Part shown: piece by piece, positions 11,230 through 62,727 of the stretch
Layout of the letters: every line of letters begins with the position of its first letter
Numbering within the stretch: the stretch's first letter is position 1
Virus record (IMG/VR): IMGVR_UViG_3300032050_000037
Location: 49,073 to 113,072 of that record
Source: a virus
Strand: one strand, 5' to 3'
DNA: 64,000 bases
The notes under the pieces: generated by a model
Databases searched by the model: none
Told to the model about the DNA's origin: nothing
What the model saw: only the letters and a program-made list of their open reading frames with translations
Made by a program: the position numbers and the translations under genes

Positions 11230-11241
11230 TGGTATAATCGT

Positions 11242-35968: not shown

Positions 35969-36260
35969 TCTTGGAGTAGATAAAGAAGATTTAGATTGGT
36001 GGCATCTTGCTATTTGTAGAGGCATGGATACTAATCTTTTTTATGATAAATACGAAAATGATGAAAAAATTGCAAAAAATATTGACGAAGCCTGCTTAGC
36101 ATGCCCAGTAATATCAATGTGTTATAAATCTGGAATTCAAAATAATGAGTATGGAGTTTGGGGTGGAGTATATTTAAGTTCTGGCTCTATAGATAAAAAT
36201 AAAAATTTACATAAAACAAATGAAGTTTGGAAAAGATTAAAAGTTAAAAATGTATATTGA
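35949..36260 (+). CDS. whiB: WhiB-family Fe-S transcription factor
   Basis: AIC...CLACPV...C...GVWGG. Confidence 0.9.
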   Translation: MSSILNDLGVDKEDLDWWHLAICRGMDTNLFYDKYENDEKIAKNIDEACLACPVISMCYKSGIQNNEYGVWGGVYLSSGSIDKNKNLHKTNEVWKRLKVKNVY

Positions 36261-36983: not shown

Positions 36984-37012
36984 TAAAGATATTACGGTAT
37001 AATTAATGTATA

Positions 37013-37330
37013 ATGAACCTAGACCTGAACGCTATAATTATTGCAATCGCTGCTGCGATATTGTCTGGCATGGGGACGGCAATTATTGCTGGACTGAACG
37101 AGAATAAAAAAGAAAAAAACAGACAAAGAGAACGAGAACAAGATCAATTAAAATTAGAGGTCAAAGACCTTAAAATTGAATTATATCAATTAGAAAAAGA
37201 ATTAACTGACTGGAAAGATAAATATTACGATGCCCTTCAAGAATTAATTTTAATTAAATCTGAACTAGAAAATGTGCTTAGGAATATATCTGATGGGGAA
37301 AATATACATAATTTCGACACAGAATTTTAA
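37013..37330 (+). CDS. N-terminal TM plus coiled-coil protein
   Basis: Hydrophobic N-terminus, heptad repeats. Confidence 0.6.
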   Translation: MNLDLNAIIIAIAAAILSGMGTAIIAGLNENKKEKNRQREREQDQLKLEVKDLKIELYQLEKELTDWKDKYYDALQELILIKSELENVLRNISDGENIHNFDTEF

Positions 37331-37348
37331 ATTTAGTATACTAGTATT

Positions 37349-37918
37349 ATGACAGCAGTGGTAGCCCTTATTCATGAAAACAAAGTCCTCTTAGGAGGAG
37401 ACTCTGCTGCATCTGATGATAAAAGTGGATTAATTTTTTCAAGAATAGATCCAAAAGTTTTTAAAGTAGGACAATTTGGAATTGCATTTGTTGATAGTTT
37501 TAGAATGGGACAGATACTTCAGTACAATTGGGCTCCACCTAAATATACTCCCAATGCTGGTTTTAAAAATTTAGATAAATTTATGAGAACTAAGTTTGTA
37601 GAATCAGTTAAAGAAGCATTTAAAGAACAGGGTTACGGAAATCAAACAGCAGGCTCTACAGAAGATGGTGACGAAGGCGGAGTATTTTTAATTGCCGTAC
37701 AAGGCACTGGACGTATTTTTACTATGGATACAGATTTTCATATAGGCGAAGCAGATTTACAGTATATGGCAGAAGGAGCTGGTCAAGAAATAGCCCTAGG
37801 GTCTTTGTTCTCTACAGCATCTATTAAAACACCTCGTAAACGTGTCAGAATGGCGCTAGAAGCTGCTTCAAAGTTTAACATGTCAGTTAGACCACCCTTT
37901 ACAATCATAGAGGTTTAG
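37349..37918 (+). CDS. HslV/proteasome-like Ntn threonine protease, leaderless
   Basis: M-T start (N-terminal Thr), GGDS, KVF, GAGQEIALGSL, ALEAA. Confidence 0.75.
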   Translation: MTAVVALIHENKVLLGGDSAASDDKSGLIFSRIDPKVFKVGQFGIAFVDSFRMGQILQYNWAPPKYTPNAGFKNLDKFMRTKFVESVKEAFKEQGYGNQTAGSTEDGDEGGVFLIAVQGTGRIFTMDTDFHIGEADLQYMAEGAGQEIALGSLFSTASIKTPRKRVRMALEAASKFNMSVRPPFTIIEV

Positions 37919-37931
37919 AGTATAATTAACT

Positions 37932-38141
37932 ATGGACATAAATAATCTTAAGCCAGAAAACTATGATAAGGCGATGGATTTAAGAGGAACACCAACTCAC
38001 GTATGTCCATGCGGATGCTACATATGGAATGTTAAAGCTATATTTTATGATTATGAAATTGTTCAATATTTTATAGACATGGAATGTGCAAACTGCGGAA
38101 GTTTAGCAACCGCCCCAACACCAGAGGATAGACCAGAATGA
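37932..38141 (+). CDS. Zn-ribbon protein
   Basis: CPCG...CANCG. Confidence 0.6.
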   Translation: MDINNLKPENYDKAMDLRGTPTHVCPCGCYIWNVKAIFYDYEIVQYFIDMECANCGSLATAPTPEDRPE

Positions 38142-46176: not shown

Positions 46177-48219
46177 ATGAGCGAAGCAAAATGCCCATTT
46201 ACGGGTAATGCATTAAACAATCAAAAAACATCAAATGCAGATTGGTGGCCTAATCAATTAGATTTGTCAGGATTAAGAAAGCATTCAGAAAAATCTGACC
46301 CAATGTCAGATGATTTTAATTATGCGAAAGAGTTTGAAAGTTTAGATCTTGATGCTATTAAAAAAGATATTGATTATCTTTTAACTACTTCGCAAGAATG
46401 GTGGCCTGCAGACTATGGTAACTATGGCCCATTCTTTATTCGTATGGCATGGCATTCAGCAGGTACATATAGAATTTCAGATGGTCGTGGTGGTGCTGGA
46501 GAAGGTCTACATAGATTTGCTCCACAAAACTCTTGGCCAGATAATGGTAATTTAGATAAGGCCCGTCGTTTGCTATGGCCTATTAAACAAAAATATGGAA
46601 AGAAAATTTCGTGGGCAGACCTTATGATTCTTGCAGGAAATGTTGCTCTTGAAAATATGGGATTTAAAACATTTGGTTTTGCTGGTGGCCGTGAAGATGT
46701 CTGGGAATCAGACGATACATATTGGGGATCAGAAAAAGAGTGGCTTGCAGACAATCGTTATAGCGGAGATCGTGAATTAGAAAATCCATTAGCTGCAGTT
46801 CAAATGGGATTAATTTATGTTAACCCAGAAGGCCCTAATGGAAATCCAGATCCAGTTCTTTCTGCAAAAGATATTCGTGAAACCTTTGCTCGTATGGCAA
46901 TGAATGATGAGGAAACAGTTGCACTTATTGCAGGTGGACATGCATTTGGTAAAGCACATGGTGCTGGCGATCCTTCACATGTTGGTCCAAATCCAGAAGC
47001 TGCCCCAATTGAAGATATGGGTCTTGGATGGAAAAACTCATTTGGAAAAGGTAATGCAGAAGACACAATTACAAGTGGTATTGAAGGTGCATGGACTGCA
47101 ACTCCTACTAAATGGGATAACTCATATCTTAAATTACTATTTAAATATGAATGGAAACAAACAAAGAGTCCTGCAGGAGCTACACAATGGATACCTACAG
47201 ATGAATCTGCTGCTAATTTAGTTCCAGATGCTCATATTGAAGGTAAATTCCATGCCCCAGTAATGACAACAGCAGACCTTGCTTTGCGATTCGATCCAGA
47301 ATATGAAAAAATTTCAAAGAAATTCCTTGAAGATTTTGATTATTTCTCAAATGTTTTTGCTCGTGCTTGGTTTAAGTTAACTCATAGAGACATGGGCCCA
47401 ATTGCAAGATATCTTGGTAAAGATGTACCATCAGAAGAATTAATTTGGCAGGATCCAGTTCAATCATCTAATATTAATATTGAAATAGATGCTATTAAGA
47501 ATAAGATTAAATCATCTGATATACCTATGTCACACTTTGTAGAGACCGCTTGGGCTTCTGCATCTACTTTCCGTAAAACAGATAAGCGTGGTGGCGCAAA
47601 TGGTGCCCGTATTAGATTACAGCCTCAAAATACATGGGAAATTAATAATAAGCCATCAATATTAAATGTTATTAGCTTCTTAGAATCTATTAAGGATAGT
47701 TTTAATGCATCACTTGCAGATTTAATTGTTTTAGCAGGATGTGCAGCAATTGAAAAAATTACTGGAGATCAAGTAGAGGTTCCATTTATTGCTGGTCGTG
47801 GAGATGCTACACAAGAGCAAACAGATATTGAATCATTTGCTGTTCTTGAGCCAAAGTTTGATGGTTTCCGTAACTATGTTCAGGAAGGTATACCAACCCC
47901 AGAAGAGGTTTTGTTAGTAGAAAAAGCTAACCTATTAGGTCTAACACCAGTAGAAATGGTTCTATTGTTATCTGGAATGCGAATGCTAAGTAATGAAAAA
48001 CTAGACAATAGTTATTTAGTTGATCTACTTTCCTATATTAATGCTGATCAGGCAAACGGGGTTCCTAGAGTGGATCTAATTATTGCATCTAATTCAGAAC
48101 TTCGTGCAATTGCTGAAGTATATGCCTCAGATGATGCAAAAGATAAATATATTAAAGACTTTATTTCAGCGTGGGATAAGGTTATGATGCTAGACCGATT
48201 TGATGTAAAGAAGGGCTAA
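46177..48219 (+). CDS. katG: catalase-peroxidase
   Basis: [42 protein letters not shown]. Confidence 0.95.
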
Positions 48220-51918: not shown

Positions 51919-52062
51919 TTACTTAGTCAGCTTAGCTTCTGCAGTAAACTTGATACCGTTCTTCTCTGCTTCAGAGAGAGCCTGCTTAGCAGCACCTGAG
52001 AAGCGACCACGCTTGCCCACTGTAATGCCCTTTGAGGCTAGATATTCACGCTTTGTTGTCAT
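51919..52062 (-). CDS. stand-alone Lsr2-type DNA-binding domain (47 aa, not in ORF track)
   Basis: MTTKREYLASKGITVGKRGRFS...; RGR AT-hook-like core; GAAAGG RBS. Confidence 0.7.
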   Translation of the reverse strand: MTTKREYLASKGITVGKRGRFSGAAKQALSEAEKNGIKFTAEAKLTK

Positions 52063-52074
52063 TGTGTTACCTTT

Positions 52075-52494
52075 CTAAATACCCTGTGCTCCGCCTTGAA
52101 GCGCCAGGTCCTGCCCATATTCAGTTGTATTATCTGACTCTTCGTCAGAATCCTCGTCCAGCCATCCGTCGTCATCTAGAGAAGCAATGAATTCATTGTC
52201 GATCATCCAGTCCATGACAGCCTCATCCATTAATTCGGCCCCGTATTCAAGAGTAAAATCGGCAGGCGGGTTATCCCAGAGTTTCTCCCAGATAACATCT
52301 AATGTAGTTCCATCAGTAACAGTATAATCATTAGCAAAGTCATCTTGAGAATAATTATTAAATTTATCTCTGATTATGTCCCAGGCCCAAAGCCATACTA
52401 ATGAAGCACCAATTGGCAAATCATTTAAAACAGAAACCATTTTATCTAATTGAAGTCTTACTTTTGTTCCAAGTTCTTTATCTTTATTATCCAC
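52075..52494 (-). CDS. acidic hypothetical early protein
   Basis: AACGAAAGG upstream. Confidence 0.65.
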   Translation of the reverse strand: MDNKDKELGTKVRLQLDKMVSVLNDLPIGASLVWLWAWDIIRDKFNNYSQDDFANDYTVTDGTTLDVIWEKLWDNPPADFTLEYGAELMDEAVMDWMIDNEFIASLDDDGWLDEDSDEESDNTTEYGQDLALQGGAQGI

Positions 52495-52771
52495 GTTTTT
52501 GCGCCCTTTCGTTGATAGCGAATGATAAATTATACGTCAGAGTATAGATTCCTGTCAAGGCGTCTAATTGGCCCTCCCAATATTTACGCTCCATGGATTC
52601 CATTGCGTCATCATAGTCATTCTCTTCCTCTATACGCTTAGCTTCCAGGTATTCCTGTTCAGCTTTATACATAAGGTTCTTTAATTCCCCATGTAGGATG
52701 TCTGTGCCTGTTTCTCCCATATCTACTAATTTTTGTAGGCGGGGGTCAAGAGTATCAGTTTTATAACTCAT
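52487..52771 (-). CDS. hypothetical early protein
   Basis: GGAG RBS before MSYKTD. Confidence 0.6.
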   Translation of the reverse strand: MSYKTDTLDPRLQKLVDMGETGTDILHGELKNLMYKAEQEYLEAKRIEEENDYDDAMESMERKYWEGQLDALTGIYTLTYNLSFAINERAQKRG

Positions 52772-52916
52772 TATACATCTCCAATACATGTTCAATAGAA
52801 TCTATTTGTCCTTTTAAATAATGCCAATCAAATGTCTCAATATCTTGCATTTGATTCATGTCCTGGTACAGGCTAGTTAAATGTATTTTCATATATTCAA
52901 TTAAACTATTAGACAT
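52761..52916 (-). CDS. 51-aa hypothetical protein
   Basis: Overlapping chain of small ORFs. Confidence 0.5.
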   Translation of the reverse strand: MSNSLIEYMKIHLTSLYQDMNQMQDIETFDWHYLKGQIDSIEHVLEMYNEL

Positions 52917-53076
52917 CTTCTGATATATATCCTTCTGCTAATAGACCTTCAAAGAAGTCCCATACAATTAATAATTGTTTATACTGTTGTTCTTCACCCT
53001 GAGACTTGGCGGTATCAATAGCCCAAGTAAGACTATTACCAAATGCCTGTATATCTTTATATGTATAACCTAACAT
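52909..53076 (-). CDS. 55-aa hypothetical protein
   Basis: GAGG RBS, TAATG coupling. Confidence 0.5.
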   Translation of the reverse strand: MLGYTYKDIQAFGNSLTWAIDTAKSQGEEQQYKQLLIVWDFFEGLLAEGYISEDV

Positions 53077-53315
53077 TATTTTTCCTCATCCCATTCAATA
53101 TAATATTCATCATCTTTATTTAAATTATAATGTTTATTAAATCTACCTTTCAGATAATTTGAATCTGACATATCTGCAATACGCCAATCTGCATAGAATT
53201 GTCCTTCATTTAGATTTTCATACATCCAGTCATCTAATAATTGTTCAGCAATTGTTTGCAGTTCTGCGTCAATTACCATTTGATTTTCATTATCTAGAAA
53301 TGATGTTTCCGCCAT
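53076..53315 (-). CDS. acidic hypothetical early protein
   Basis: AACGAAAGGA RBS and TGTCAG-N10-TATAAT promoter. Confidence 0.7.
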   Translation of the reverse strand: MAETSFLDNENQMVIDAELQTIAEQLLDDWMYENLNEGQFYADWRIADMSDSNYLKGRFNKHYNLNKDDEYYIEWDEEK

Positions 53316-53467
53316 TTTATTCCTTTCGTTAGTATGACCTAATTATAATTCATACCACTGACATTTGTCTATATGGTGTGTATCACACAAAGCTTGATCA
53401 AATTTCCAGGAAATATACTTGACATCCGTAAAAGAGATATGCTACCCTCATGTCTTTTTGTGGGCAA

Positions 53468-53594
53468 ATCCCCCAGCTATAAAACTAGGGGATCAGGAAG
53501 AGTGGCTGCTAGGACCTCAACGAAAGGAAAAACCTGCTTTACTTAGCAACTCGATTAGTTGCACCACTCGTATAGATAGGCACCCAGGCCTACC
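53468..53594 (-). ncRNA. candidate trans-acting sRNA complementary to the shared early-gene RBS
   Basis: TGTTATAAT upstream, four stems plus a 3' hairpin, G-U pairs only on - strand, contains UUUUUCCUUUCGUU. Confidence 0.7.
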
Positions 53595-53608
53595 AATATT
53601 ATAACATA

Positions 53609-54013
53609 TTAGACGAGTAGTCTTTCCATTGCATACTTCTCACAGAATGCTTCTAGGTCCATGGTAAAGATTGCTTCATTCTTCATACCTAAAACTTTAT
53701 TCTCTAGGTTACGATGGTCGTCCTGTTCGTGCAATGAGAATGTTCGCTCTTGCCAATTAATCACGGCAATCTTGTGCTCATTGTCACCAATAGCATTTAC
53801 TTGCAGGCCCCATCCAGTCTCCATATTCCATTGGTCGCCGATTAGATGACTAATAGTAATACGTGTTGCATATGATTCATCATTCCAACGAGGACGGGCA
53901 GCAATAACAGCATCCGCTAATTTGCCTAGCATGTTATATCCAGCCCAGTGTCCATATAGACATATGGTGTCTCCTGCTCCATCTACGAATACAAAGTTTG
54001 CTCTGTCTCCCAT
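53609..54013 (-). CDS. hypothetical early protein
   Basis: MGDRANF...LYGHWAG; AAAGG RBS. Confidence 0.7.
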   Translation of the reverse strand: MGDRANFVFVDGAGDTICLYGHWAGYNMLGKLADAVIAARPRWNDESYATRITISHLIGDQWNMETGWGLQVNAIGDNEHKIAVINWQERTFSLHEQDDHRNLENKVLGMKNEAIFTMDLEAFCEKYAMERLLV

Positions 54014-54014
54014 T

Positions 54015-54203
54015 TTAAACCGCCTTTTCTAGTTGAGGTGTTTCTTCCGTTTTATTTAATTCTATCATTTCATAGGCCCACTTGTCTAGGCTTTCTGAAT
54101 TCTTATTTCGGTGATGCCCGCAAAATGCCAGCTCACCAGATGTGCTACGGGCTAACCATTTAGCCTGAGCTGAGCATGAATCACATTTAATCCATTCGCT
54201 CAT
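54015..54203 (-). CDS. Zn-finger protein
   Basis: CDSC...FCGHH. Confidence 0.65.
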   Translation of the reverse strand: MSEWIKCDSCSAQAKWLARSTSGELAFCGHHRNKNSESLDKWAYEMIELNKTEETPQLEKAV

Positions 54204-54346
54204 AGTTTATTGCTCTCTATCATGTCTGATAATCTATCTAGTAACCAGGAATCGATATCGTTAATATCAATCTCTCTTAGTTTCTCAATTAATTCCTCAC
54301 GAGCAAATTTATACCCGTCCTGGAATCCATCTTTATAATCAGACAT
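54200..54346 (-). CDS. 48-aa hypothetical protein
   Basis: GAGGA RBS, coupled on both sides. Confidence 0.55.
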   Translation of the reverse strand: MSDYKDGFQDGYKFAREELIEKLREIDINDIDSWLLDRLSDMIESNKL

Positions 54347-54567
54347 TACAATCCTCTCAAATATCCAGTAGGTTCATATTCAGCGACATAAGTTTCTTTT
54401 AAATTAAACTTATCTCTAATCCTACTTACCTTCTCAATATTACCAGTTCCGATATTGAAAGTCAATGATGTCATGGGCTGAGGATCCAGCCCAATCAAAT
54501 CTGCTTCCCAGTAAGCAGCCTTTAGTGCTTGCTGGGATGGAGCGGTTAGTTCGATATACATTACCAA
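54346..54567 (-). CDS. hypothetical protein
   Basis: Coupled ORF. Confidence 0.6.
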   Translation of the reverse strand: MVMYIELTAPSQQALKAAYWEADLIGLDPQPMTSLTFNIGTGNIEKVSRIRDKFNLKETYVAEYEPTGYLRGL

Positions 54568-55178
54568 TCCACATCCGCATCTTCAACATCAAATGTATCT
54601 ACAGTTAAATCACCATTGTATGAATCAATAGTTAGATTATCTTGTAGGAAGTATTTAGCATCAAAGTTTTCAACTTCCTCTAAAGGAATTTCATATTCAG
54701 CCTCAACACTAATTTGAGCGGTTATACGAATTGTTTGCTTTGGCTCGTGTCCAAGGATTTCACAAAGGTCACGAAGAATGTCTTCCTTATCTATATTTGG
54801 GTTGTACCAGCCATCTGCAGTTAAGTTAGATGTGATTTGATTAATTAAACTAACATTCTGCATAAGCGTCTTCTCAGTGTACTTAACTTGGTCTAATTGA
54901 TATTCCAGGCTAGTTACCTTGATTGTTGGGTAAGTTACCTCACCGTCGGTAATCGACTTGTATGTCACAAGTAGATTAGGGTTATAGGTCTCAGGGACCG
55001 TATTTGTTTCCATTTCTTTCCTTTCGTTGTTTGGGTGTATTGTAGCATCTTCCACTGACAATAGATTACATTCTATTCCACAGTGCCAAATGTTTCTGAA
55101 TTCATCTTTACGAGTTACCTCTATTAAAGCATCACATTCTGTGCAGAGATGTGAATCTTTAAACCAGCTTTCTGTCAT
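54561..55178 (-). CDS. hypothetical protein with nested in-frame start at 55013
   Basis: ATGA-coupled start at 55178; internal promoter and AACGAAAGG RBS before METN. Confidence 0.65.
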   Translation of the reverse strand: MTESWFKDSHLCTECDALIEVTRKDEFRNIWHCGIECNLLSVEDATIHPNNERKEMETNTVPETYNPNLLVTYKSITDGEVTYPTIKVTSLEYQLDQVKYTEKTLMQNVSLINQITSNLTADGWYNPNIDKEDILRDLCEILGHEPKQTIRITAQISVEAEYEIPLEEVENFDAKYFLQDNLTIDSYNGDLTVDTFDVEDADVDW

Positions 55179-55942
55179 GCTTCCACCTTTTCTAATAGAG
55201 AAACGTGTGTATCGCATTGTGCCATAGCCTCTTCATCTTGCCAAGAGCCTTGGTTACATTCTGAACAGAATTCACCACAGTCATTGTCACAATAACTTAA
55301 TGTGTCAAAAGATTGGCAGGCATAGCAACGATTCTCATATTCTAGAATCTCTGTGACATCACCACGGACAATCTCTAACTCTCCGCCCCAACCTTGCTCC
55401 TCTTCATATTCTAAAGTAAGCAAAGAGTTAGGAACCATATTAGATAGTTTAGTTAGAATTGTGACGGCAGGAGACCAAGCAGTATTATATTTATATATAA
55501 GCCAGTTATCATCACCGTCTGATTTATATTCAAGTAATTCTGTATCAGGATATTCCTCATCATCTGATACAGCAACATCCCATTTGGTACCCCAATTAGA
55601 GTTATTCCATGAATACCAATCTTTAGCGGTTTTAGCACGTTCAACAGATTTAGCAAACCAATCAGGGTCATTATTTATATCTATACCACTGCGGTCAGGT
55701 TGCTGTGCATATTCCTCATCTGTAATTCCATCATCCTTATATGAATGAATGTTGAAGAATGCAAATACAGGATTACTATATGTTACTTGTTTAATTTTAG
55801 TTGGGAATCCATGTGCACTAATGTCTCCCATTCCATGATTCTCTATTGCTAATGTAAATGGAGCATTTAGTTTATCCTTGATATAATCTATCTCAGACTT
55901 AGGTCCTTGGATTGTTAATGTGTTATATACCCAGTTTGGCAT
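55175..55942 (-). CDS. DUF1281/YubB ferredoxin-like domain protein
   Basis: MPNWVYN..WY.W...NWGTKWD...TAWSP; C-terminal Cys cluster. Confidence 0.75.
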   Translation of the reverse strand: MPNWVYNTLTIQGPKSEIDYIKDKLNAPFTLAIENHGMGDISAHGFPTKIKQVTYSNPVFAFFNIHSYKDDGITDEEYAQQPDRSGIDINNDPDWFAKSVERAKTAKDWYSWNNSNWGTKWDVAVSDDEEYPDTELLEYKSDGDDNWLIYKYNTAWSPAVTILTKLSNMVPNSLLTLEYEEEQGWGGELEIVRGDVTEILEYENRCYACQSFDTLSYCDNDCGEFCSECNQGSWQDEEAMAQCDTHVSLLEKVEA

Positions 55943-56062
55943 ATTATTCCTTTCGTTGTTGGCCCAATTATAGCGGATGAGACTGACAATTACAAGCATT
56001 TTCAGGAAAAAAATCCCCTTGCCGTAAGGAAGAAAATCGGCCTTCACCATCTGGGGGCTTTG

Positions 56063-56136
56063 CGATCCGTATGAGACTTGAACTCACGACCTCTACCGTG
56101 ACAGGGTAGCGCTCTAACCAACTGAGCTAACGGACC
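56063..56136 (-). tRNA. tRNA-Asp(GTC)
   Basis: GGTCCGTTAGCTCAGTTGGTTAGAGCGCTACCCTGTCACGGTAG...TTCAAGT...ACGGATCG. Confidence 0.92.
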
Positions 56137-56166
56137 TAAGAGGGGCCCCTTGCGGGGCCCATTTAT

Positions 56167-57183
56167 TTAGATGAGTTGCAAATTAGTTTGAACAACTTTA
56201 AGCAGACGATTTTTTTCTGCGTTAATAGTTGCATCAAATCCACTTGCAGAGGCTAACAGATTTTCATTGTTAGCACCACGAGCAGAACGGTGCCAATCTA
56301 AACGCTCAGTTAAAGCATTAAGAGCACCCCACGCATTACCAGCGATTGTATGATTAAATTCGCCAGTATAAATATCGTTGATTAAATCAACTTTATTTTG
56401 CCATTTTTTAACAGCACCCTTAGTATCCTTAGTAGGTTTAGGATATGCAGCCAAAATGATATCGTTAAATTGTTGAGCAGTAATTTCCTTCTCAATCATC
56501 AACTTAGCCATTTTATCGAATTCATCCATGTATGCATTAGCAAGACCTAAAGTCTCACGAGCAACTTGCACACGACCTTGTGCGGTTTGTGTGTGGCGAA
56601 TTTTGAATGATTGCTTTACGCCATCACGCTTTTTTGTACGACCTAACGCAAGGTTAAGAGTGTTAGCACATACAACACGAACAGGTGTAATGCTTGCTTG
56701 AATAGCAATAGTTCCGTCATGTGATGTGTTAATAAGCAAATAAGTTTTTACTTTATCTGCCACGCCATTAGGGTCTAATACAGTCTCACGCTCTAATGCA
56801 AGAGAGCCGAATACAACACGACCACCACGAATTGAGCCAGCAGTCTCCCAACGTCCACCGCCGTCAAGAATGTTATCTCCGAATGCAAATAATTCTTCAT
56901 TTTGCAATGGTACATAACGCTCACCAACAATTCCTAAAACGTCGGTTTGTGTTTTGTCCGTAGGATTAGTACGCACAACATATTGATAGTTTTTATCGCT
57001 TGTTAATGTAGATGGAATTTCTAATTCCTCTAAGCGAACATTCCAACCATTAAGGTTAGCAGCCTCTAGCATTTCGCTAGTTGTTTTTTCTTCTGTGAAC
57101 ACAGTACCTAAACCATGCCACGCAGGTTCACGGAATGATGCAAAACTTGCAACACCGTTTTGAGTTTCTAACTCATGAGCCAT
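56167..57183 (-). CDS. DUF932 / TIGR03299 phage-plasmid protein
   Basis: PAWHGLG, VGERY..LQN, ETAGS, NTSHDG, PVRVVCANT, IRHT. Confidence 0.85.
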   Translation of the reverse strand: MAHELETQNGVASFASFREPAWHGLGTVFTEEKTTSEMLEAANLNGWNVRLEELEIPSTLTSDKNYQYVVRTNPTDKTQTDVLGIVGERYVPLQNEELFAFGDNILDGGGRWETAGSIRGGRVVFGSLALERETVLDPNGVADKVKTYLLINTSHDGTIAIQASITPVRVVCANTLNLALGRTKKRDGVKQSFKIRHTQTAQGRVQVARETLGLANAYMDEFDKMAKLMIEKEITAQQFNDIILAAYPKPTKDTKGAVKKWQNKVDLINDIYTGEFNHTIAGNAWGALNALTERLDWHRSARGANNENLLASASGFDATINAEKNRLLKVVQTNLQLI

Positions 57184-57262
57184 TTTTTATCCTTTCGTTT
57201 TGAGTTGCCTAATTTTAACACACATGACTGACATTGACAAGACTAACACACATTTTCAGGAG

Positions 57263-57294
57263 TTATCCACAAGGGCCCGTAAACCTGTGGAAAA
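57263..57294. promoter_or_regulatory. pair of inverted DnaA boxes
   Basis: TTATCCACA 57263-57271; TGTGGAAAA 57286-57294. Confidence 0.65.
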
Positions 57295-57372
57295 CCCCGC
57301 AGCTACTTGCGGGCAGGGGAAGATGGGCCAGGGATCTAGATGATTACACGACACAAACCTGGCCCAAGATTA

Positions 57373-57585
57373 TTAGATTAGACTATGAATGTCCTCTGGA
57401 AAGAAAGCAGCAAATATTTTTTTATTTTGATTAGTATCAAAAACATATGCTTTGATATTGCCTTGAAATCTATTTAGATTATCTTTTACAAGACGGGTTA
57501 AAGAATTACGATTTAAGTTTTCTTCTGAGTAGATAGTTAAATCGTGAGCTTTATTAGCATCATATATTTCTACACGATAACGCAT
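57373..57585 (-). CDS. hypothetical protein
   Basis: AAAAGGA RBS, TAGACA-N17-TACAAT promoter. Confidence 0.6.
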   Translation of the reverse strand: MRYRVEIYDANKAHDLTIYSEENLNRNSLTRLVKDNLNRFQGNIKAYVFDTNQNKKIFAAFFPEDIHSLI

Positions 57586-57654
57586 TTTATTCCTTTTGTA
57601 GTAGGGACATGAATTGTAGCATGGGGGCTAGGTTTTGTCTAGCCCCCGCTAAGA

Positions 57655-58077
57655 TTACAAGTATCTTGCGATAGCGTTGTAAGTAGAAGTAGAAACTACC
57701 TCCTCATCGGTCATCTTGAGAATACGGATAGCATTTTCCATTTCCTCTTTCATTTCACGATAAGTATGAAGGTGAATAACCTCGTAGTCCTTTTCAGGCT
57801 CTTTTGGAAAATCCTTTTCATCGCATACAAGGTCAAAATCTACATTGAGAGTTTTGTTCCAAGAGCGATAGTTGGTGCGTAGGTTTTCTGCTTTTGCTAT
57901 TTGAGCAACGGCATACTTACCAAGTTCCTTTGACCACTTCTCACGGGCTTTATTATACTTTGCTTCGTTTTCATCTTGTTTCTTAAAGTCAGCCTCTACT
58001 TGTGCTAACTTTGCTTCTAAGGCTTTGATAACCTTAGCAGTAGGTATTTTTACCTGTATTGCTTTTCCTCTTGCCAT
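57655..58077 (-). CDS. hypothetical early protein
   Basis: AACGAAAGGA RBS + PafBC-type promoter. Confidence 0.7.
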   Translation of the reverse strand: MARGKAIQVKIPTAKVIKALEAKLAQVEADFKKQDENEAKYNKAREKWSKELGKYAVAQIAKAENLRTNYRSWNKTLNVDFDLVCDEKDFPKEPEKDYEVIHLHTYREMKEEMENAIRILKMTDEEVVSTSTYNAIARYL

Positions 58078-58146
58078 TTATTTTTCCTTTCGTTGGGTTT
58101 TGGTTTATTATAGCGGATACCACCGACAAGCAGTATCCGCTAACTA

Positions 58147-58290
58147 TTACTTAACTGATACTGAAGTCCAGCGTTCTTTGCCATTTACATCTAGCAAGAC
58201 ACGATTTACTCCGCTTGGGTGATTATCAATAGCCTTGATAATTCCAGTAATACCACTTTGAGTAGTTGTGTATAGTTGTCCGATTTCCAT
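58147..58290 (-). CDS. small SH3-like hypothetical protein
   Basis: AACGAAAGGA RBS before MEIGQLY. Confidence 0.6.
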   Translation of the reverse strand: MEIGQLYTTTQSGITGIIKAIDNHPSGVNRVLLDVNGKERWTSVSVK

Positions 58291-58338
58291 TTTGTTTCCT
58301 TTCGTTTGAAGTTGTATTATAGCACCCACCACCGACAA

Positions 58339-58617
58339 TTAGTAGTCGGTTTCAGGTAGCCAAGCCTCTAGGTGGTGAGCCTCTACAATAGCGCAGGCAG
58401 GTGCTTTAGTCATGCCCTTCCAAGATACGCCTTCAGGTAGAGTTATCTTTCTGTTATAGTCCTCATCGTAGTAAGCATCAATAGCATCTATACAAGGTTG
58501 GATCATAGATTTAGGAACGGGTGGGTAATGATTACCCTGTAAGTGCATTCCTATCTGAGTTTCCAAGTCTAAGTCTAATAAGCCATCGGCTAATTCTGTT
58601 GCTAGATTACTCCCCAT
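58339..58617 (-). CDS. hypothetical protein
   Basis: HLQGNHYPPVP...AHHL motif; GGAGG RBS. Confidence 0.65.
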   Translation of the reverse strand: MGSNLATELADGLLDLDLETQIGMHLQGNHYPPVPKSMIQPCIDAIDAYYDEDYNRKITLPEGVSWKGMTKAPACAIVEAHHLEAWLPETDY

Positions 58618-58891
58618 TATTATCCTCCTCCAAGATAGTTTCGGTTAAGTTGTCCATTTCGTTAATACTATCAACAAGGTCTGACATTTGTTGTTCAGTT
58701 AATAATACTTTAGTAGTAAGGTCTGCTACTTTGCTTGCTAACGCTACTGAATACATATAGATATATCTAGGGAATTGATTATCATTAAGTTCATTTCTGC
58801 GTGTGTGTAGTTCGCCAGCCAATGCCATAATTTCATCATCATATATGGCTTCTTTGGTTGCGCTTGCTATTGATATTGCTGTTGCTAACAT
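58607..58891 (-). CDS. hypothetical early protein
   Basis: AACGAAAGGA RBS + PafBC-type promoter. Confidence 0.65.
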   Translation of the reverse strand: MLATAISIASATKEAIYDDEIMALAGELHTRRNELNDNQFPRYIYMYSVALASKVADLTTKVLLTEQQMSDLVDSINEMDNLTETILEEDNNGE

Positions 58892-59155
58892 ATTTTCCTT
58901 TCGTTGTGTATGGAATTATATCAGTATTAACTGACATTTATTGCGACACGCCCATATTTTCCAGGGTGATTTACATCACACCCATAACGACACGCCCGAC
59001 CCCGCAGCTAGTGTGGGGGCTTTTATCCGCTAAGCCCGTCTCCATTTGAATCATATTTATTATAAGTAACTAAATAAATTATTATTGCGAATGGGGCCAC
59101 TAGTACCAACGATAACAGGGCCCCAATTATTTCTCCGATTAAAAAATCCATGGAC

Positions 59156-59875
59156 CTACTTTTTACTAGCAGAAAATCTAACATCTGCTTTTCCAAATAC
59201 ACACAAGCCACACGATACACAAGCGGAACCATTAGCAGAAATTAGCGGAATGCTTTTATTATTTTCAGGACATTTAGCGCCAGGCTTACCGATTAATTCT
59301 TTCATAGTATTTTCGGTGACAGCAAAAGTTTTTCCTAAATAAGCCAATCTAATTTTAGTACCAGTCTTACGCAGATCATGCGCTATATCTTTATTCTCAT
59401 CATCCGTAGAATAATAAAGAGACAAGTTATCAATACCGTCTAGGATAATGGCAGCAGACTTTACACGAGTGTACACCCAGAATTGCACGTCGACATTATT
59501 ATTAATAACAGTCTTCCATGCATATGCATAAGTATCATTAAAGAAATCGCCGTCCCAGTGGATACGGAATAACTTTTTAGCATTGCGCTTATCACAATCT
59601 TTTTTAAAGTCATCAATCATTGCAGATAGAAGAGAAACCATAGTTTCTTGATCAGCGTCTTTTAATAAATTCCAATTATGCATGAGCACGTCTTTAACGC
59701 CTTTATATACTTTTTCTAATTTGCCTGCATAGCATACGCTTTCGCACACGCTAGTGGCGCCAGGACATGAGAATGCTTTTCCTGCAGGCAGCCCGAATGT
59801 ATTTGCAATTGTAGGAGTTTTACCGTTAGGGGAAACGGCATTAGCTACTTTACGATCATTAGATCTTTTTAACAT
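59156..59875 (-). CDS. GP88-family (radical-SAM-like Fe-S) protein, leaderless
   Basis: FGLPAG..CPGAT.VC...CYA, FRIHWDGDF, YTR, C..CGLC; ATG 7 nt after TATAAT. Confidence 0.8.
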   Translation of the reverse strand: MLKRSNDRKVANAVSPNGKTPTIANTFGLPAGKAFSCPGATSVCESVCYAGKLEKVYKGVKDVLMHNWNLLKDADQETMVSLLSAMIDDFKKDCDKRNAKKLFRIHWDGDFFNDTYAYAWKTVINNNVDVQFWVYTRVKSAAIILDGIDNLSLYYSTDDENKDIAHDLRKTGTKIRLAYLGKTFAVTENTMKELIGKPGAKCPENNKSIPLISANGSACVSCGLCVFGKADVRFSASKK

Positions 59876-59904
59876 GGGAGGAATTATAGCAGCTTGAGCT
59901 GACA

Positions 59905-60060
59905 TTATAGGTCCCCCATTTCTGCATCAGCCATGCGTGTCATAGCCCAATCTTGCGCTAGATCACGATCATACACGGCCATGCCTTCGCTAGTATAACC
60001 ACGGGCACAAATTGTGCAAATAGAATAGTTTGTGCAATAGCAGGAATTGATATCGTTCAT
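59905..60060 (-). CDS. 51-aa Cys-rich protein
   Basis: AACGAAAGG RBS; CYC...CTIC. Confidence 0.6.
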   Translation of the reverse strand: MNDINSCYCTNYSICTICARGYTSEGMAVYDRDLAQDWAMTRMADAEMGDL

Positions 60061-60193
60061 TAGTTGACCTTTCGTTAAGTTGAGAGAATGCTATCAGGTC
60101 AGACTGACATTTACAAATCGACACGCCGAATTCCAGGAATTTTTAAATATGTGTCTTAAATCACAAAGCGCCCCCACAGCTTTTGTGGGCGCA

Positions 60194-60209
60194 TCGAACA
60201 TTTGTTCTA
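60194..60209. promoter_or_regulatory. actinobacterial SOS (LexA) box-like site
   Basis: TCGAAC-ATTT-GTTCTA vs consensus TCGAAC-N4-GTTCGA (1 mismatch). Confidence 0.6.
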
Positions 60210-60315
60210 ATATTATCTAGAAGCTTTTTTATGTTTTATTTTTCTAGTATATTTTTTTTTATTGCGAACAGGTTGCGCCGCATTACTACGGCGCAATTCC
60301 TGAATTCGTTTTACT

Positions 60316-60507
60316 TTATTTCGAAGAGTAGTTTGGAATATGATAACCACCAGCCTTATAAAAAATTTGTGCGTCAAACTTTGGATTATCTTTCGCAAAC
60401 ATTAAAGCAAAATCAACAACAACTTTAGAGAATAAAGCGGGGTGAACTTTATCGCTCATATATTTTAGAATTTCAGCGGTAGCAACATAGTCTTTACGGG
60501 TCATCAT
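60316..60507 (-). CDS. hypothetical protein
   Basis: MTRKDY..A...F..DNPKFD..IF motif; coupled. Confidence 0.65.
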   Translation of the reverse strand: MMTRKDYVATAEILKYMSDKVHPALFSKVVVDFALMFAKDNPKFDAQIFYKAGGYHIPNYSSK

Positions 60508-60704
60508 TTTGCCGACACCAATCCAATCGCATTAAAGTTTTTTGTATACATTTTGCCATTTGGCATTTCTAAATTATAGGTTGCGTATTCTTTAGCAAAT
60601 CCATAGTCTTTACATCTAGCAAAAGCCTCAAACGCTTCTAATGCGTCAGAGAATTGGTGTGTAAATTCTAGGTTGCCGTCATAGTAAGTAAATAGTTTAT
60701 ACAT
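60504..60704 (-). CDS. hypothetical early protein
   Basis: AACGAAAGGA RBS before MYKLFTYY. Confidence 0.65.
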   Translation of the reverse strand: MYKLFTYYDGNLEFTHQFSDALEAFEAFARCKDYGFAKEYATYNLEMPNGKMYTKNFNAIGLVSAK

Positions 60705-60814
60705 TAGTTTTCCTTTCGTTGGGTTGAACATAGGCATTTTGTTATTGTTATTGTATCGCTTACCACCGACAAAGTGGCAAGCGTTGAGCAATCATCACAG
60801 AGAAAAATTTCCAT

Positions 60815-60958
60815 TTAGAAATCCAATTCTAAACTTTGTGGATTACATAAGCAAGGCTCAAGGTCAAAAGTATCCTCGTTGCCATAGTAAAGCCAACCTT
60901 GTCCGTAGCATGTGCCACAGTTTTTAATTTCCTCTAGTAGAGATTTTATTTTTGCCAT
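60815..60958 (-). CDS. 47-aa Cys protein
   Basis: AACGAAAGGA RBS; CGTCYGQG...PCLC. Confidence 0.6.
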   Translation of the reverse strand: MAKIKSLLEEIKNCGTCYGQGWLYYGNEDTFDLEPCLCNPQSLELDF

Positions 60959-60993
60959 TTTAGTTTTCCTTTCGTTTTGTTAGCGGTATTGTA

Positions 60994-61140
60994 TCAGTTA
61001 TCGCTGACAATTGGCAAAACGGGAGAGCCTTCCAACTCTAACCCAATTTCTAAATCTAACAATTCTTCGGAAGTGGCTTCGGATAAATCTACCCAGCCAG
61101 CCCCGTTTTCATTAACACGGAAAATTTCTATGTATCCCAT
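60994..61140 (-). CDS. 48-aa acidic protein
   Basis: TAATG coupling. Confidence 0.5.
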   Translation of the reverse strand: MGYIEIFRVNENGAGWVDLSEATSEELLDLEIGLELEGSPVLPIVSDN

Positions 61141-61343
61141 TATTCACCGACTTTCACCGCTATTGTGCGGAATTTATTTTTCAAAGTATGAGGAGAAAAG
61201 ATTTCTACCAAATACGCTTCGGTATTTTCTCCATACCAAATTGGTTGATTAGATTTCTCTGCTGAAACAATTTCTCCAGTAAGAGTTTTTGAATTATAGG
61301 TTTTACCAATTAGTAAATCCTCAATTGTGTATAAGTTAGCCAT
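61140..61343 (-). CDS. hypothetical early protein
   Basis: AACGAAAGGA RBS + PafBC-type promoter. Confidence 0.65.
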   Translation of the reverse strand: MANLYTIEDLLIGKTYNSKTLTGEIVSAEKSNQPIWYGENTEAYLVEIFSPHTLKNKFRTIAVKVGE

Positions 61344-61395
61344 TTAAGTTTTCCTTTCGTTATGTCGTTATTTTAACATAATCCACCGACAATTA

Positions 61396-61600
61396 CCACC
61401 GACACGCCGTAAATTACAAGAATGTAATTATGTGTTCTTAATCACACGAGTTATCCACGACACGCCCGAAGTTTTCCACAGATTTCCAGGGTTTTCCACA
61501 ATCTGTTCATAAACCTGTGGATAACCCCCACAAAAGCCTGCGGGCAGCTGTCGCCCTTGTCAAGGCGACACGCCGATTATTCTTTGTGAGGTTGCTCACA
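61396..61600. promoter_or_regulatory. dense array of DnaA-, CRP- and WhiA-like sites
   Basis: TTATCCACG, TTTTCCACA x2, TGTGGATAA; TGTGW-N6-TCACA x2; CGACACGCC x3. Confidence 0.7.
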
Positions 61601-61805
61601 TACGCATTTAGTATATGCGCCAGCGTTAAGCCTGCCACATTTAGGGCAGGTATAGAATCCGCTAGGGTTAGCCATTATCTACCCCACTTATATCCTACTA
61701 GATCGCAAGCGTATCCGTCTGCGGTATTGTGGCAGTTAGCATAGACGGGCTCAGAGTATAAATCAAATAGCGCAATCGCTATCAGTAAAGCAATCGCTAA
61801 CCTAA

Positions 61806-61946
61806 TCATTTACGACCCTTCCACAATTTAACACCGATTACAATAATAAAAGCGGTGGCAATACTTAGCCAATTAAACTCAGTATAAAACCAATCAGTAG
61901 AAATCGTTAAACCAAAATCGCTTAATTCTAAATCAAAATAAATCAT
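61806..61946 (-). CDS. small membrane protein
   Basis: C-terminal TM helix, coupled ORF. Confidence 0.5.
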   Translation of the reverse strand: MIYFDLELSDFGLTISTDWFYTEFNWLSIATAFIIVIGVKLWKGRK

Positions 61947-62119
61947 TATTCGGCACTCTCCCAATCTAGTGTTAATTCATTTTCGATTACCTCATCAAGG
62001 CTAATCATGTCCTCATCAAATAGGCTCTCCTCATTATGTTTATCTATCGCCTCTAGTTCGTCTAGGTGGCGATAAGCGTCTGCGACATCTGCTTGAATAG
62101 TGTCCCATTTAGTCATCAT
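61946..62119 (-). CDS. 57-aa highly acidic protein
   Basis: AGGAG RBS. Confidence 0.55.
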   Translation of the reverse strand: MMTKWDTIQADVADAYRHLDELEAIDKHNEESLFDEDMISLDEVIENELTLDWESAE

Positions 62120-62125
62120 TAGTTA

Positions 62126-62284
62126 TTACTCCTGTTCCATTTTAGAGATAAAGTAAGAGAACTTTATCTGAGGTTTAACGCTGTTTAGTTCGTCTATTGT
62201 TTTTACTACATCTTTCATAGATGAAGCGGTGAAGCCAATGCCCTTTAGTTGAGAGCCTTGCCATATTGAGTATGTTATTTTCAT
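62126..62284 (-). CDS. 52-aa hypothetical protein
   Basis: AACGAAAGGA RBS + PafBC-type promoter. Confidence 0.6.
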   Translation of the reverse strand: MKITYSIWQGSQLKGIGFTASSMKDVVKTIDELNSVKPQIKFSYFISKMEQE

Positions 62285-62363
62285 TTAGTTTTCCTTTCGT
62301 TGTTATGAGATAAATCTAGCACATGCTACCGACAAAACGCAAGCCTTGTCGGTGTGATGTTGC

Positions 62364-62477
62364 TCACCAACATGATGAGCAAGAGCAATGGGATTGATGT
62401 CCCTTAGTAAACGGAGTATGAGCAGGACCTTGTCCCTCATAGGCGATACATGTATCACAAGTTAATTCGTTATTCAT
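62364..62477 (-). CDS. 37-aa Cys/His-rich peptide
   Basis: AACGAAAGGA RBS; CDTC...HCSCSSCW. Confidence 0.55.
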   Translation of the reverse strand: MNNELTCDTCIAYEGQGPAHTPFTKGHQSHCSCSSCW

Positions 62478-62727
62478 ATTTATATCCTTTCGTTATATAT
62501 ATAACTCTACATGAGGGGACTGACAATTTCCACTAGACAAATCGGACATGTCGGACATTTTCAAAACTTTTTCAAAATATTCATGTGATATACACCACAT
62601 ATGGTCGCTCTAATAGGACAAATCGGACATTTTAAATATGTGTATCATACAAATAAAATCTCTATTAACATTTTATGAAATCTGATATTATAGTCGACTA
62701 GAATAAAATATAGTATACTGAATATAT

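Follow-up and report, generated by a model that had tools for sequence, protein, structure and literature searches.

A conserved structured RNA family of uncultured phages presents a loop complementary to a repeated early-gene leader

Introduction

In a 64,000-nt stretch of phage DNA (hereafter the window), the right-hand part of an IMG/VR virus record of 113,072 bp and ~32% G+C, one 9-mer, AACGAAAGG, stands in front of 14 genes on the - strand, and a single further copy lies in the opposite orientation in the gap between two genes. What is the inverted copy for? An initial annotation made from the letters alone proposed that the gap encodes a small RNA which displays the complement of a ribosome-binding site shared by early genes and shuts off their translation together. 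The window DNA gave no match to known phage genomes. The locus was examined through its motif counts, its predicted fold and its uncultured relatives.

Results

One leader motif and a single inverted copy

The motif count confirmed the 14 - strand copies and the lone inverted copy of the initial annotation, the latter at 53519-53527 on the + strand. These 15 copies in the 64,000-nt window compare with 0.28 expected, and none of 100 shuffles attained 15. The remaining 49 kb of the genome holds no extra AACGAAAGG. The 7-mer ACGAAAG occurs on the - strand solely in the 14 leaders and on the + strand solely at 53520 and 16072; in transcript sense, AACGAAAG is confined to the 14 leaders and one + strand site. 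The copies on the - strand are as follows.

52505-52513 (-): leader AACGAAAGG of the 139-aa gene, after a TTGACA-N18-TATAAT promoter
53322-53330 (-): leader of the 79-aa gene, which follows the RNA described below as the next unit
55020-55028 (-): leader of the operon closed by the 134-aa gene and the RNA
55949-55957 (-): leader of a unit with a first cistron of 255 aa
57191-57199 (-): leader of the DUF932 gene
58086-58094 (-): leader
58298-58306 (-): leader
58897-58905 (-): leader
60068-60076 (-): leader
60712-60720 (-): leader, 29 nt past its promoter
60968-60976 (-): leader
61353-61361 (-): leader
62293-62301 (-): leader
62486-62494 (-): leader

Read on the - strand, 53519-53532 is the exact complement of AACGAAAGG followed by its A run. 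When the whole genome was scanned for duplexes with this stretch, the leaders came out at the top, with energies of -19 to -26 kcal/mol where the mean was -6.4. The complementarity between loop and leaders is far above chance and specific within the genome.

Leaders lie at the start of early transcripts

The 14 copies belong to cassettes that recur along the block. A TGTC(A/G)G-N10-TANNNT promoter precedes 13 of the 14, 12 of which lie 9-12 nt past the -10 box. This bipartite motif is the PafBC consensus described in mycobacteria, tGTCgg(N10)tA(N3)T (PMC8635444). With the 9-mer at that distance from the promoter, its AAC falls close to the predicted transcription start: the motif begins ~2-5 nt past it, and the leaders are ~20 nt long. 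About 16 promoters of this type lie in 52000-62600, all on the early (-) strand. The strand preference is equally clear in the relatives described below, which have 707 unique TGTCRG-N10-TANNNT promoters on the early strand versus 2 on the other. Exact ACGAAAG follows 394 of the 707 (56%), mostly 8-16 nt past the -10 box, and the other ~44% are followed by variant or different leaders, with one-base variants that include UCGAAAGG and AUGAAAGG.

The initial annotation had the motif in every early leader. This holds for the first cistron of each unit but not within the units, where at least 10 internal - strand genes of the block lack the 9-mer and use other ribosome-binding sites. The + strand genes have GGAG/AGGA-type sites or leaderless starts. 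Many of the + strand genes start 5-9 nt past a TGGTATAAT-type box (e.g. at 11230, 18819, 33459 and in 37000-38000). These appear, from that spacing, to give leaderless mRNAs, an expression class apart from the early block.

The probable host

The low G+C content of 32% had first raised the suspicion of a Firmicutes phage, which was ruled out by WhiB, by the PafBC-type promoters and by the Pfam families DUF932, GP88 and DUF7455 on early genes. (The GP88 family takes its name from a phage gene product.) WhiB, found among our control genomes only in Corynebacterium glutamicum, is an indicator of actinophages (PMC10202952); in the window, a WhiB-family gene lies at 35997-36170 (+). Together with the PafBC-type promoters and the leaderless + strand genes, this makes the host probably actinobacterial, and the metagenome sources of the relatives suggest a freshwater one. 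In view of these host signs, the premise of the initial annotation that the leader contains an actinobacterial Shine-Dalgarno (SD) sequence is reasonable. The window also carries a KatG catalase-peroxidase homologue at 46177-48219 (+), 53% identical to enterobacterial KatG.

The gap is predicted to encode a - strand RNA

The + strand copy of the motif sits in a 292-bp gap between two - strand genes. The gap is predicted to encode a - strand RNA gene of ~130 nt, running from ~53594 to 53465, with the following parts and neighbours.

53609-54013 (-): 134-aa gene, which closes a conserved early operon and served as the marker for collecting relatives
53598-53606 (-): predicted extended -10 promoter TGTTATAAT of the RNA, directly 3' of the stop codon of the 134-aa gene
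53575-53594 (-): 5' hairpin GGUAGGC/GCCUAUC of the MFE fold, varying in sequence among relatives
53500-53569 (-): three-way-junction core, from covariance model R1
53563-53569 with 53500-53506 (-): closing stem P1
53546-53562 (-): hairpin P2
53538-53545 (-): single-stranded J2/3, UAAGUAAA
53508-53537 (-): P3 arm, whose loop holds UUUUUCCUUUCGUU
53519-53532 (-): anti-leader UUUUUCCUUUCGUU in the P3 loop, the exact leader complement
53519-53526 (-): invariant core CUUUCGUU of the P3 loop
53465-53493 (-): 3' GC-rich hairpin AUCCCCUAG/CUGGGGGAU of the MFE fold, at 53468-53493, followed by UUU
53076-53315 (-): 79-aa gene, the other flank of the gap

The fold drawn in the initial annotation is the MFE fold of the - strand, with all of its helices present, and the extended -10 element that it placed at 53606-53598 is there, right after the stop codon of the 134-aa gene. 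The - strand folds at -50.1 kcal/mol (z = -3.5), compared with -34.5 kcal/mol (z = -1.5) for the + strand. The TGTTATAAT promoter is without the TGTCRG box typical of the early promoters. The 3' hairpin and its UUU are probably an intrinsic terminator; the U-tract is no longer than UUU in the window phage but extends further in most relatives. Judged by sequence signals, the gene thus has its own promoter and its own terminator in intergenic DNA. It also presents an accessible, conserved seed complementary to the 14 leaders: UCGUU is unpaired in more than 95% of the ensemble, and opening the anti-leader stretch costs 1-3.4 kcal/mol.

Several DNA motifs adjoin the RNA gene. TTACGG-N16-18-CCTGRAAA has three exact copies (53403-53431, 55999-56027 and 57253-57282, in - reading) against 0.01 expected; it stands in front of early promoters, and relatives retain it immediately 3' of the RNA terminator. 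In + strand orientation, this bipartite motif resembles an ECF-type promoter aimed into the RNA gene; a search of the phage for a matching sigma factor gene found none. Directly after the terminator, at 53443-53466 (-), lies a UUGCCCRCA-N6-9-UGAGGGUA box, which nearly all relatives keep, even where the terminator is missing. An inverted repeat, GTGTGATACACAC, at ~53376-53388 (-) upstream of the promoter of the 79-aa gene takes the form GGTGTG-N3-CACACC in relatives and is a candidate operator.

Conservation of the RNA in relatives

Relatives were gathered through the neighbouring 134-aa protein, so that the RNA played no part in their selection. IMG/VR contains 75 relatives of this gene with 62-93% identity, mostly from freshwater metagenomes, and CTTTCGTT is present in the gap after the gene in all 74 that have downstream sequence. 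A protein collection from a divergent clade comprised at least 246 contigs, and the RNA with the same loop was found in 80 of 80 loci examined. The loop CUUUCGUU is therefore unchanged in 154 of 154 protein-retrieved loci (74/74 and 80/80). It is the most conserved element of the RNA, while the stems vary; in the clade of the window, the loci extend down to 62% amino-acid identity of the neighbouring protein. A separate pattern scan of IMG/VR returned at least 119 contigs, and 96 distinct core sequences were obtained overall.

The exact complement described in the initial annotation is conserved in part: the 8-mer core is invariant, but the first C is variable, the base preceding the 8-mer being C in 47, A in 29 and U in 20 of the 96 distinct RNAs. 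The conserved part therefore matches AACGAAAG and not the GG of the Shine-Dalgarno sequence.

The helices change in a compensatory manner. P1 occurs as GAGUGG/CCACUC, GAAUGG/CCAUUC and GUAGGG/CCCUAC, P2 as GCAACU/AGUUGC, GCGGCU/AGUCGC and GCCCCU/AGGGGU, and P3 as GCAGG/CCUAGC, GCAGU/ACUAGC and GCGUC/GACGGC. When 25 long-form members are aligned with MAFFT, 92.8% of cells are paired and 11 pairs show double changes. A covariance model built from these 25 members matches each locus exactly once and finds the window RNA at 53496-53572 (model R1, 51 bits, E = 3e-8). Because MAFFT misaligned the short-P2 forms when all forms were included, the wider comparison used the covariance-model alignment. 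Over its 55 distinct sequences, standard pairs make up 97.1% of cells, and both partners change in 14 of the 21 pairs, among them all five of P3. None of 500 shuffles was as good, nor did any attain any one of five measures, and sliding the partner by 1-3 columns lowers pairing to 24-47%. A covariance-model alignment leans towards the structure of its model; the independent MAFFT subset gave the same verdict. In a second, wider set, 95.0% of cells are paired, 11 of 21 pairs have double changes and the covariation score is 0.454, versus 0.142 for shuffles.

G-U pairs are frequent at two P2 positions, and the functional strand is therefore the - strand. The initial annotation had already taken G-U wobbles as a strand marker, a use that both alignments bear out, and its proposed check on collected homologs revealed a strongly conserved, structured - strand RNA. 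It had also called the gap ORF-free. Mechanical + strand ORFs do overlap the gap, but the conservation pattern is RNA-like, and we read the gap as an RNA rather than an ORF because of the compensatory stem changes and the G-U pairs.

The predicted gene boundaries are widely shared. Among 101 unique relatives, 85 have a TGNTANNNT box at the equivalent place, 84 have a terminator-like hairpin with a U-run and 72 have both, while a few are without a clear promoter or terminator. Three relatives carry a full TTGACA-N17-TATAAT upstream of the RNA. Of the 85 relatives with the promoter box, 63 have a 5' hairpin that reaches -5 kcal/mol or better.

At the junction, GGUGC, UAANUAA and GCAGCC are nearly invariant while the helices covary. 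A subgroup of five relatives (L348, L349, L350, L353 and L356, at about 1900-2000) has UAAGCAA for UAAGUAA and GCGGCC for GCAGCC, with the loop unchanged. Two further structural ideas were set aside. In long-form relatives, J2/3 (UAAGUAAA) could form an H-type pseudoknot with the loop (UUUACUUA), but this is not supported: the central pair is unpaired in 10 of 25 sequences, with no compensation. The long-form RNA (GGUGCGGCU, AAGUCG..UAA..AAGG) resembles the 3' end of actinobacterial 16S rRNA, a likeness given little weight because the bases concerned covary away in other subfamilies.

An RNA family absent from Rfam

Searches with Rfam 15 gave no family match at the window locus (53300-53700, E up to 10) or on five relatives (E up to 1); the hits seen were a chance-level CRISPR-DR17 match on the terminator hairpin (E = 1.5) and an STnc490 match on the opposite strand (E = 0.48). 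The C4 antisense RNA model (RF01695) matched neither the window locus nor the five relatives. ARAGORN and the Rfam tRNA model found no tRNA or tmRNA at the RNA locus; four ordinary tRNAs lie elsewhere in the window. The element does not look like a riboswitch or cis-leader either, the next gene having a TGTCAG-N10-TATAAT promoter and the downstream gene being variable. Among representative genomes of 185,579 prokaryotic species, 13 pattern matches were obtained, three of which are true. All three come from MAG contigs of 3 kb whose taxonomic labels disagree, and these contigs are probably mis-binned phage DNA. The RNA is a well-supported family, present in hundreds of relatives and absent from Rfam.

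Discussion

A possible antisense switch for early genes

What would such an RNA do? We lean towards a trans-acting antisense RNA that blocks the early leaders, and which would probably switch the early genes off together. The RNA would be transcribed from its own extended -10 promoter and end at its own hairpin terminator, with the 5' hairpin and the three-way junction keeping the pyrimidine-rich loop open. The loop CUUUCGUU (UUUUUCCUUUCGUU in the window phage) would then pair with the 5'-proximal leader AACGAAAGG(A)n on the first cistrons of ~14 early units, most of them under PafBC-type promoters. The predicted duplex spans the leader from a few bases past its 5' end through the Shine-Dalgarno sequence; it would thereby block 30S binding on all these transcripts together, and may also expose the mRNA to decay. 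The + strand genes, with their GGAG/AGGA-type sites or leaderless starts, would be spared. RNA-RNA pairing is the simplest account because it joins an independent stable RNA, an accessible loop that is its most conserved element and an exact complement to multiple leaders. Expression, pairing in vivo, the direction of repression and its timing are features that we infer from the DNA sequence.

Three observations shape how far this reading goes. First, loop and leaders were compared across the C-, A-, U- and long-form subfamilies in 10-kb flanks for co-variation. The core is invariant on both sides, and the variable loop base, opposite the second G of the Shine-Dalgarno sequence, has no matching leader changes, so that no co-variation signal emerged. 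Second, since the 9-mer marks first cistrons only and ~44% of the promoters in relatives have variant leaders, any shut-off would be partial. Third, the conservation of AAC could also reflect constraints on the promoter or the initial transcribed region, because AAC is among the first bases to be transcribed.

Alternative explanations

An antisense scaffold of simple design needs no invariant junction, and the one seen here therefore hints at a protein or ligand partner. The RNA might accordingly be a ribonucleoprotein scaffold or guide, or a protein decoy, in which the junction binds a phage or host protein and the loop either guides it to AACGAAAG leaders (e.g. for cleavage) or is itself the binding site. 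We regard this as unlikely, though it draws on two features of the family: the near-invariance of GGUGC, UAANUAA and GCAGCC amid covarying helices, and the constant position of the RNA behind the same conserved four-gene early operon ending with the 134-aa protein. The second feature loses weight because synteny around the RNA is general and extends over the whole operon, so that a place next to the 134-aa gene carries no specific information. The first is weakened by the five relatives that alter the junction and keep the loop. The 134-aa protein itself is without a recognisable family or fold. It has no Pfam family and matches phrog_31860, and its hits in the protein atlas are unnamed viral clusters only. 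Its AlphaFold model is confident (pLDDT 90) but gave no structural match, with a best Foldseek E of 0.16 and a best VIA-align Z of 3.6, and the protein was rejected as an RNA-binding partner. In its sequence, 49 residues are invariant, among them DNEH, several His, Trp and Arg, and also Asp. A pure decoy, moreover, leaves the exact complementarity to the leaders unexplained.

Rather improbable is a cis-acting element that serves the upstream operon as a 3'-UTR or terminator module or, on read-through, uses its anti-leader sequence to sequester the ribosome-binding site of the next gene ~190 nt downstream. The RNA does occupy the 3' end of a conserved operon that itself has a motif-bearing leader, the next gene begins with AACGAAAGG, read-through is plausible given the short U-tract in the window phage, and a few relatives are without a clear promoter or terminator. 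However, a promoter of its own and a strong terminator accompany the RNA in most relatives, and the promoter of the next gene lies between the RNA and the ribosome-binding site of that gene. What lies downstream also differs among relatives, both in the gene and in how far away it is (about 250 or about 1000 nt), and one target would not account for identity with 14 leaders.

It is very improbable that the 9-mer is a DNA-level signal (an operator or initial-transcribed element of PafBC-type promoters, with the inverted copy another site or a coincidence) or that the + strand is transcribed with AACGAAAGG as a decoy or sponge: although the motif lies ~2-5 nt past the predicted start of each early promoter and a conserved TYCAGG-N16-18-CCGTAA on the + strand points into the RNA gene, the inverted copy sits in the loop of a covarying helix whose G-U pairs fix the strand as -, it lies ~70 nt inside the transcribed RNA and not at a promoter, the + strand fold is unremarkable, and no sigma factor gene for the putative + strand promoter was found in the phage.

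Relation to known systems

Returning to the antisense reading, c4 of phages P1/P7 and CI of P4 (Rfam C4, RF01695) are phage-encoded structured antisense RNAs of ~80-130 nt, whose exposed loops pair at or beside phage ribosome-binding sites and shut down a gene block. In these temperate phages of Proteobacteria, processing of a longer transcript yields the RNA, and a single operon is its target. The RNA described here is similarly a phage RNA with a closing stem, internal hairpins and an exposed loop complementary to a ribosome-binding-site region. It differs in having no Rfam match, its own predicted promoter and terminator, a probable actinobacterial host and ~14 units with one leader.

In bacteria, RsaE/RoxS, the hairpins of RNAIII and the actinobacterial 6C RNA use C/U-rich loops to pair with many Shine-Dalgarno regions, free of Hfq; they are host-encoded and present short C-rich motifs to diverse targets. 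The phage RNA shares with them a trans-encoded layout, a terminator and a conserved pyrimidine-rich loop, and none of these families gave an Rfam match at the RNA locus. Unlike in those RNAs, the invariant CUUUCGUU covers the non-SD AAC as much as the SD, the base opposite the second SD G varies and the proposed targets are one repeated phage leader. By analogy of function, c4/CI and the bacterial small RNAs with anti-SD loops are the closest systems.

In phage T4, RegA is a translational repressor and RegB an endoribonuclease that cuts GGAG in early Shine-Dalgarno sites. The proposal made here is alike in being a collective post-transcriptional shut-off of early mRNAs through their ribosome-binding sites (for T4, reviewed in PMC3014915), and differs in its effector, which is protein in T4 and would be RNA here. 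The logic of a repeated leader across multiple operons of a lytic-type early region appears to be new in the literature searched, which likewise offered no precedent for a regulon-wide, RNA-based shut-off of phage early genes.

Implications

More tentatively than for the pairing itself, and as a possibility that we hold with some doubt, this RNA may be the master early-to-later switch of a group of uncultured freshwater actinophages. Such phages would have recruited host PafBC for ~14 promoters that are hard to turn off transcriptionally, and would silence all of them through one leader-loop pair, possibly with the aid of a protein.

Whatever its function, the family is worth describing, being large, structurally well defined and absent from Rfam. 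If the pairing is true, one loop against one repeated leader would provide a lytic phage with a simple timing device, and the RNA would be, within the literature searched, the first regulatory RNA described from the phages of freshwater Actinobacteria, which are abundant. Actinobacterial genetics could also gain a compact orthogonal repression module from the leader-loop pair.
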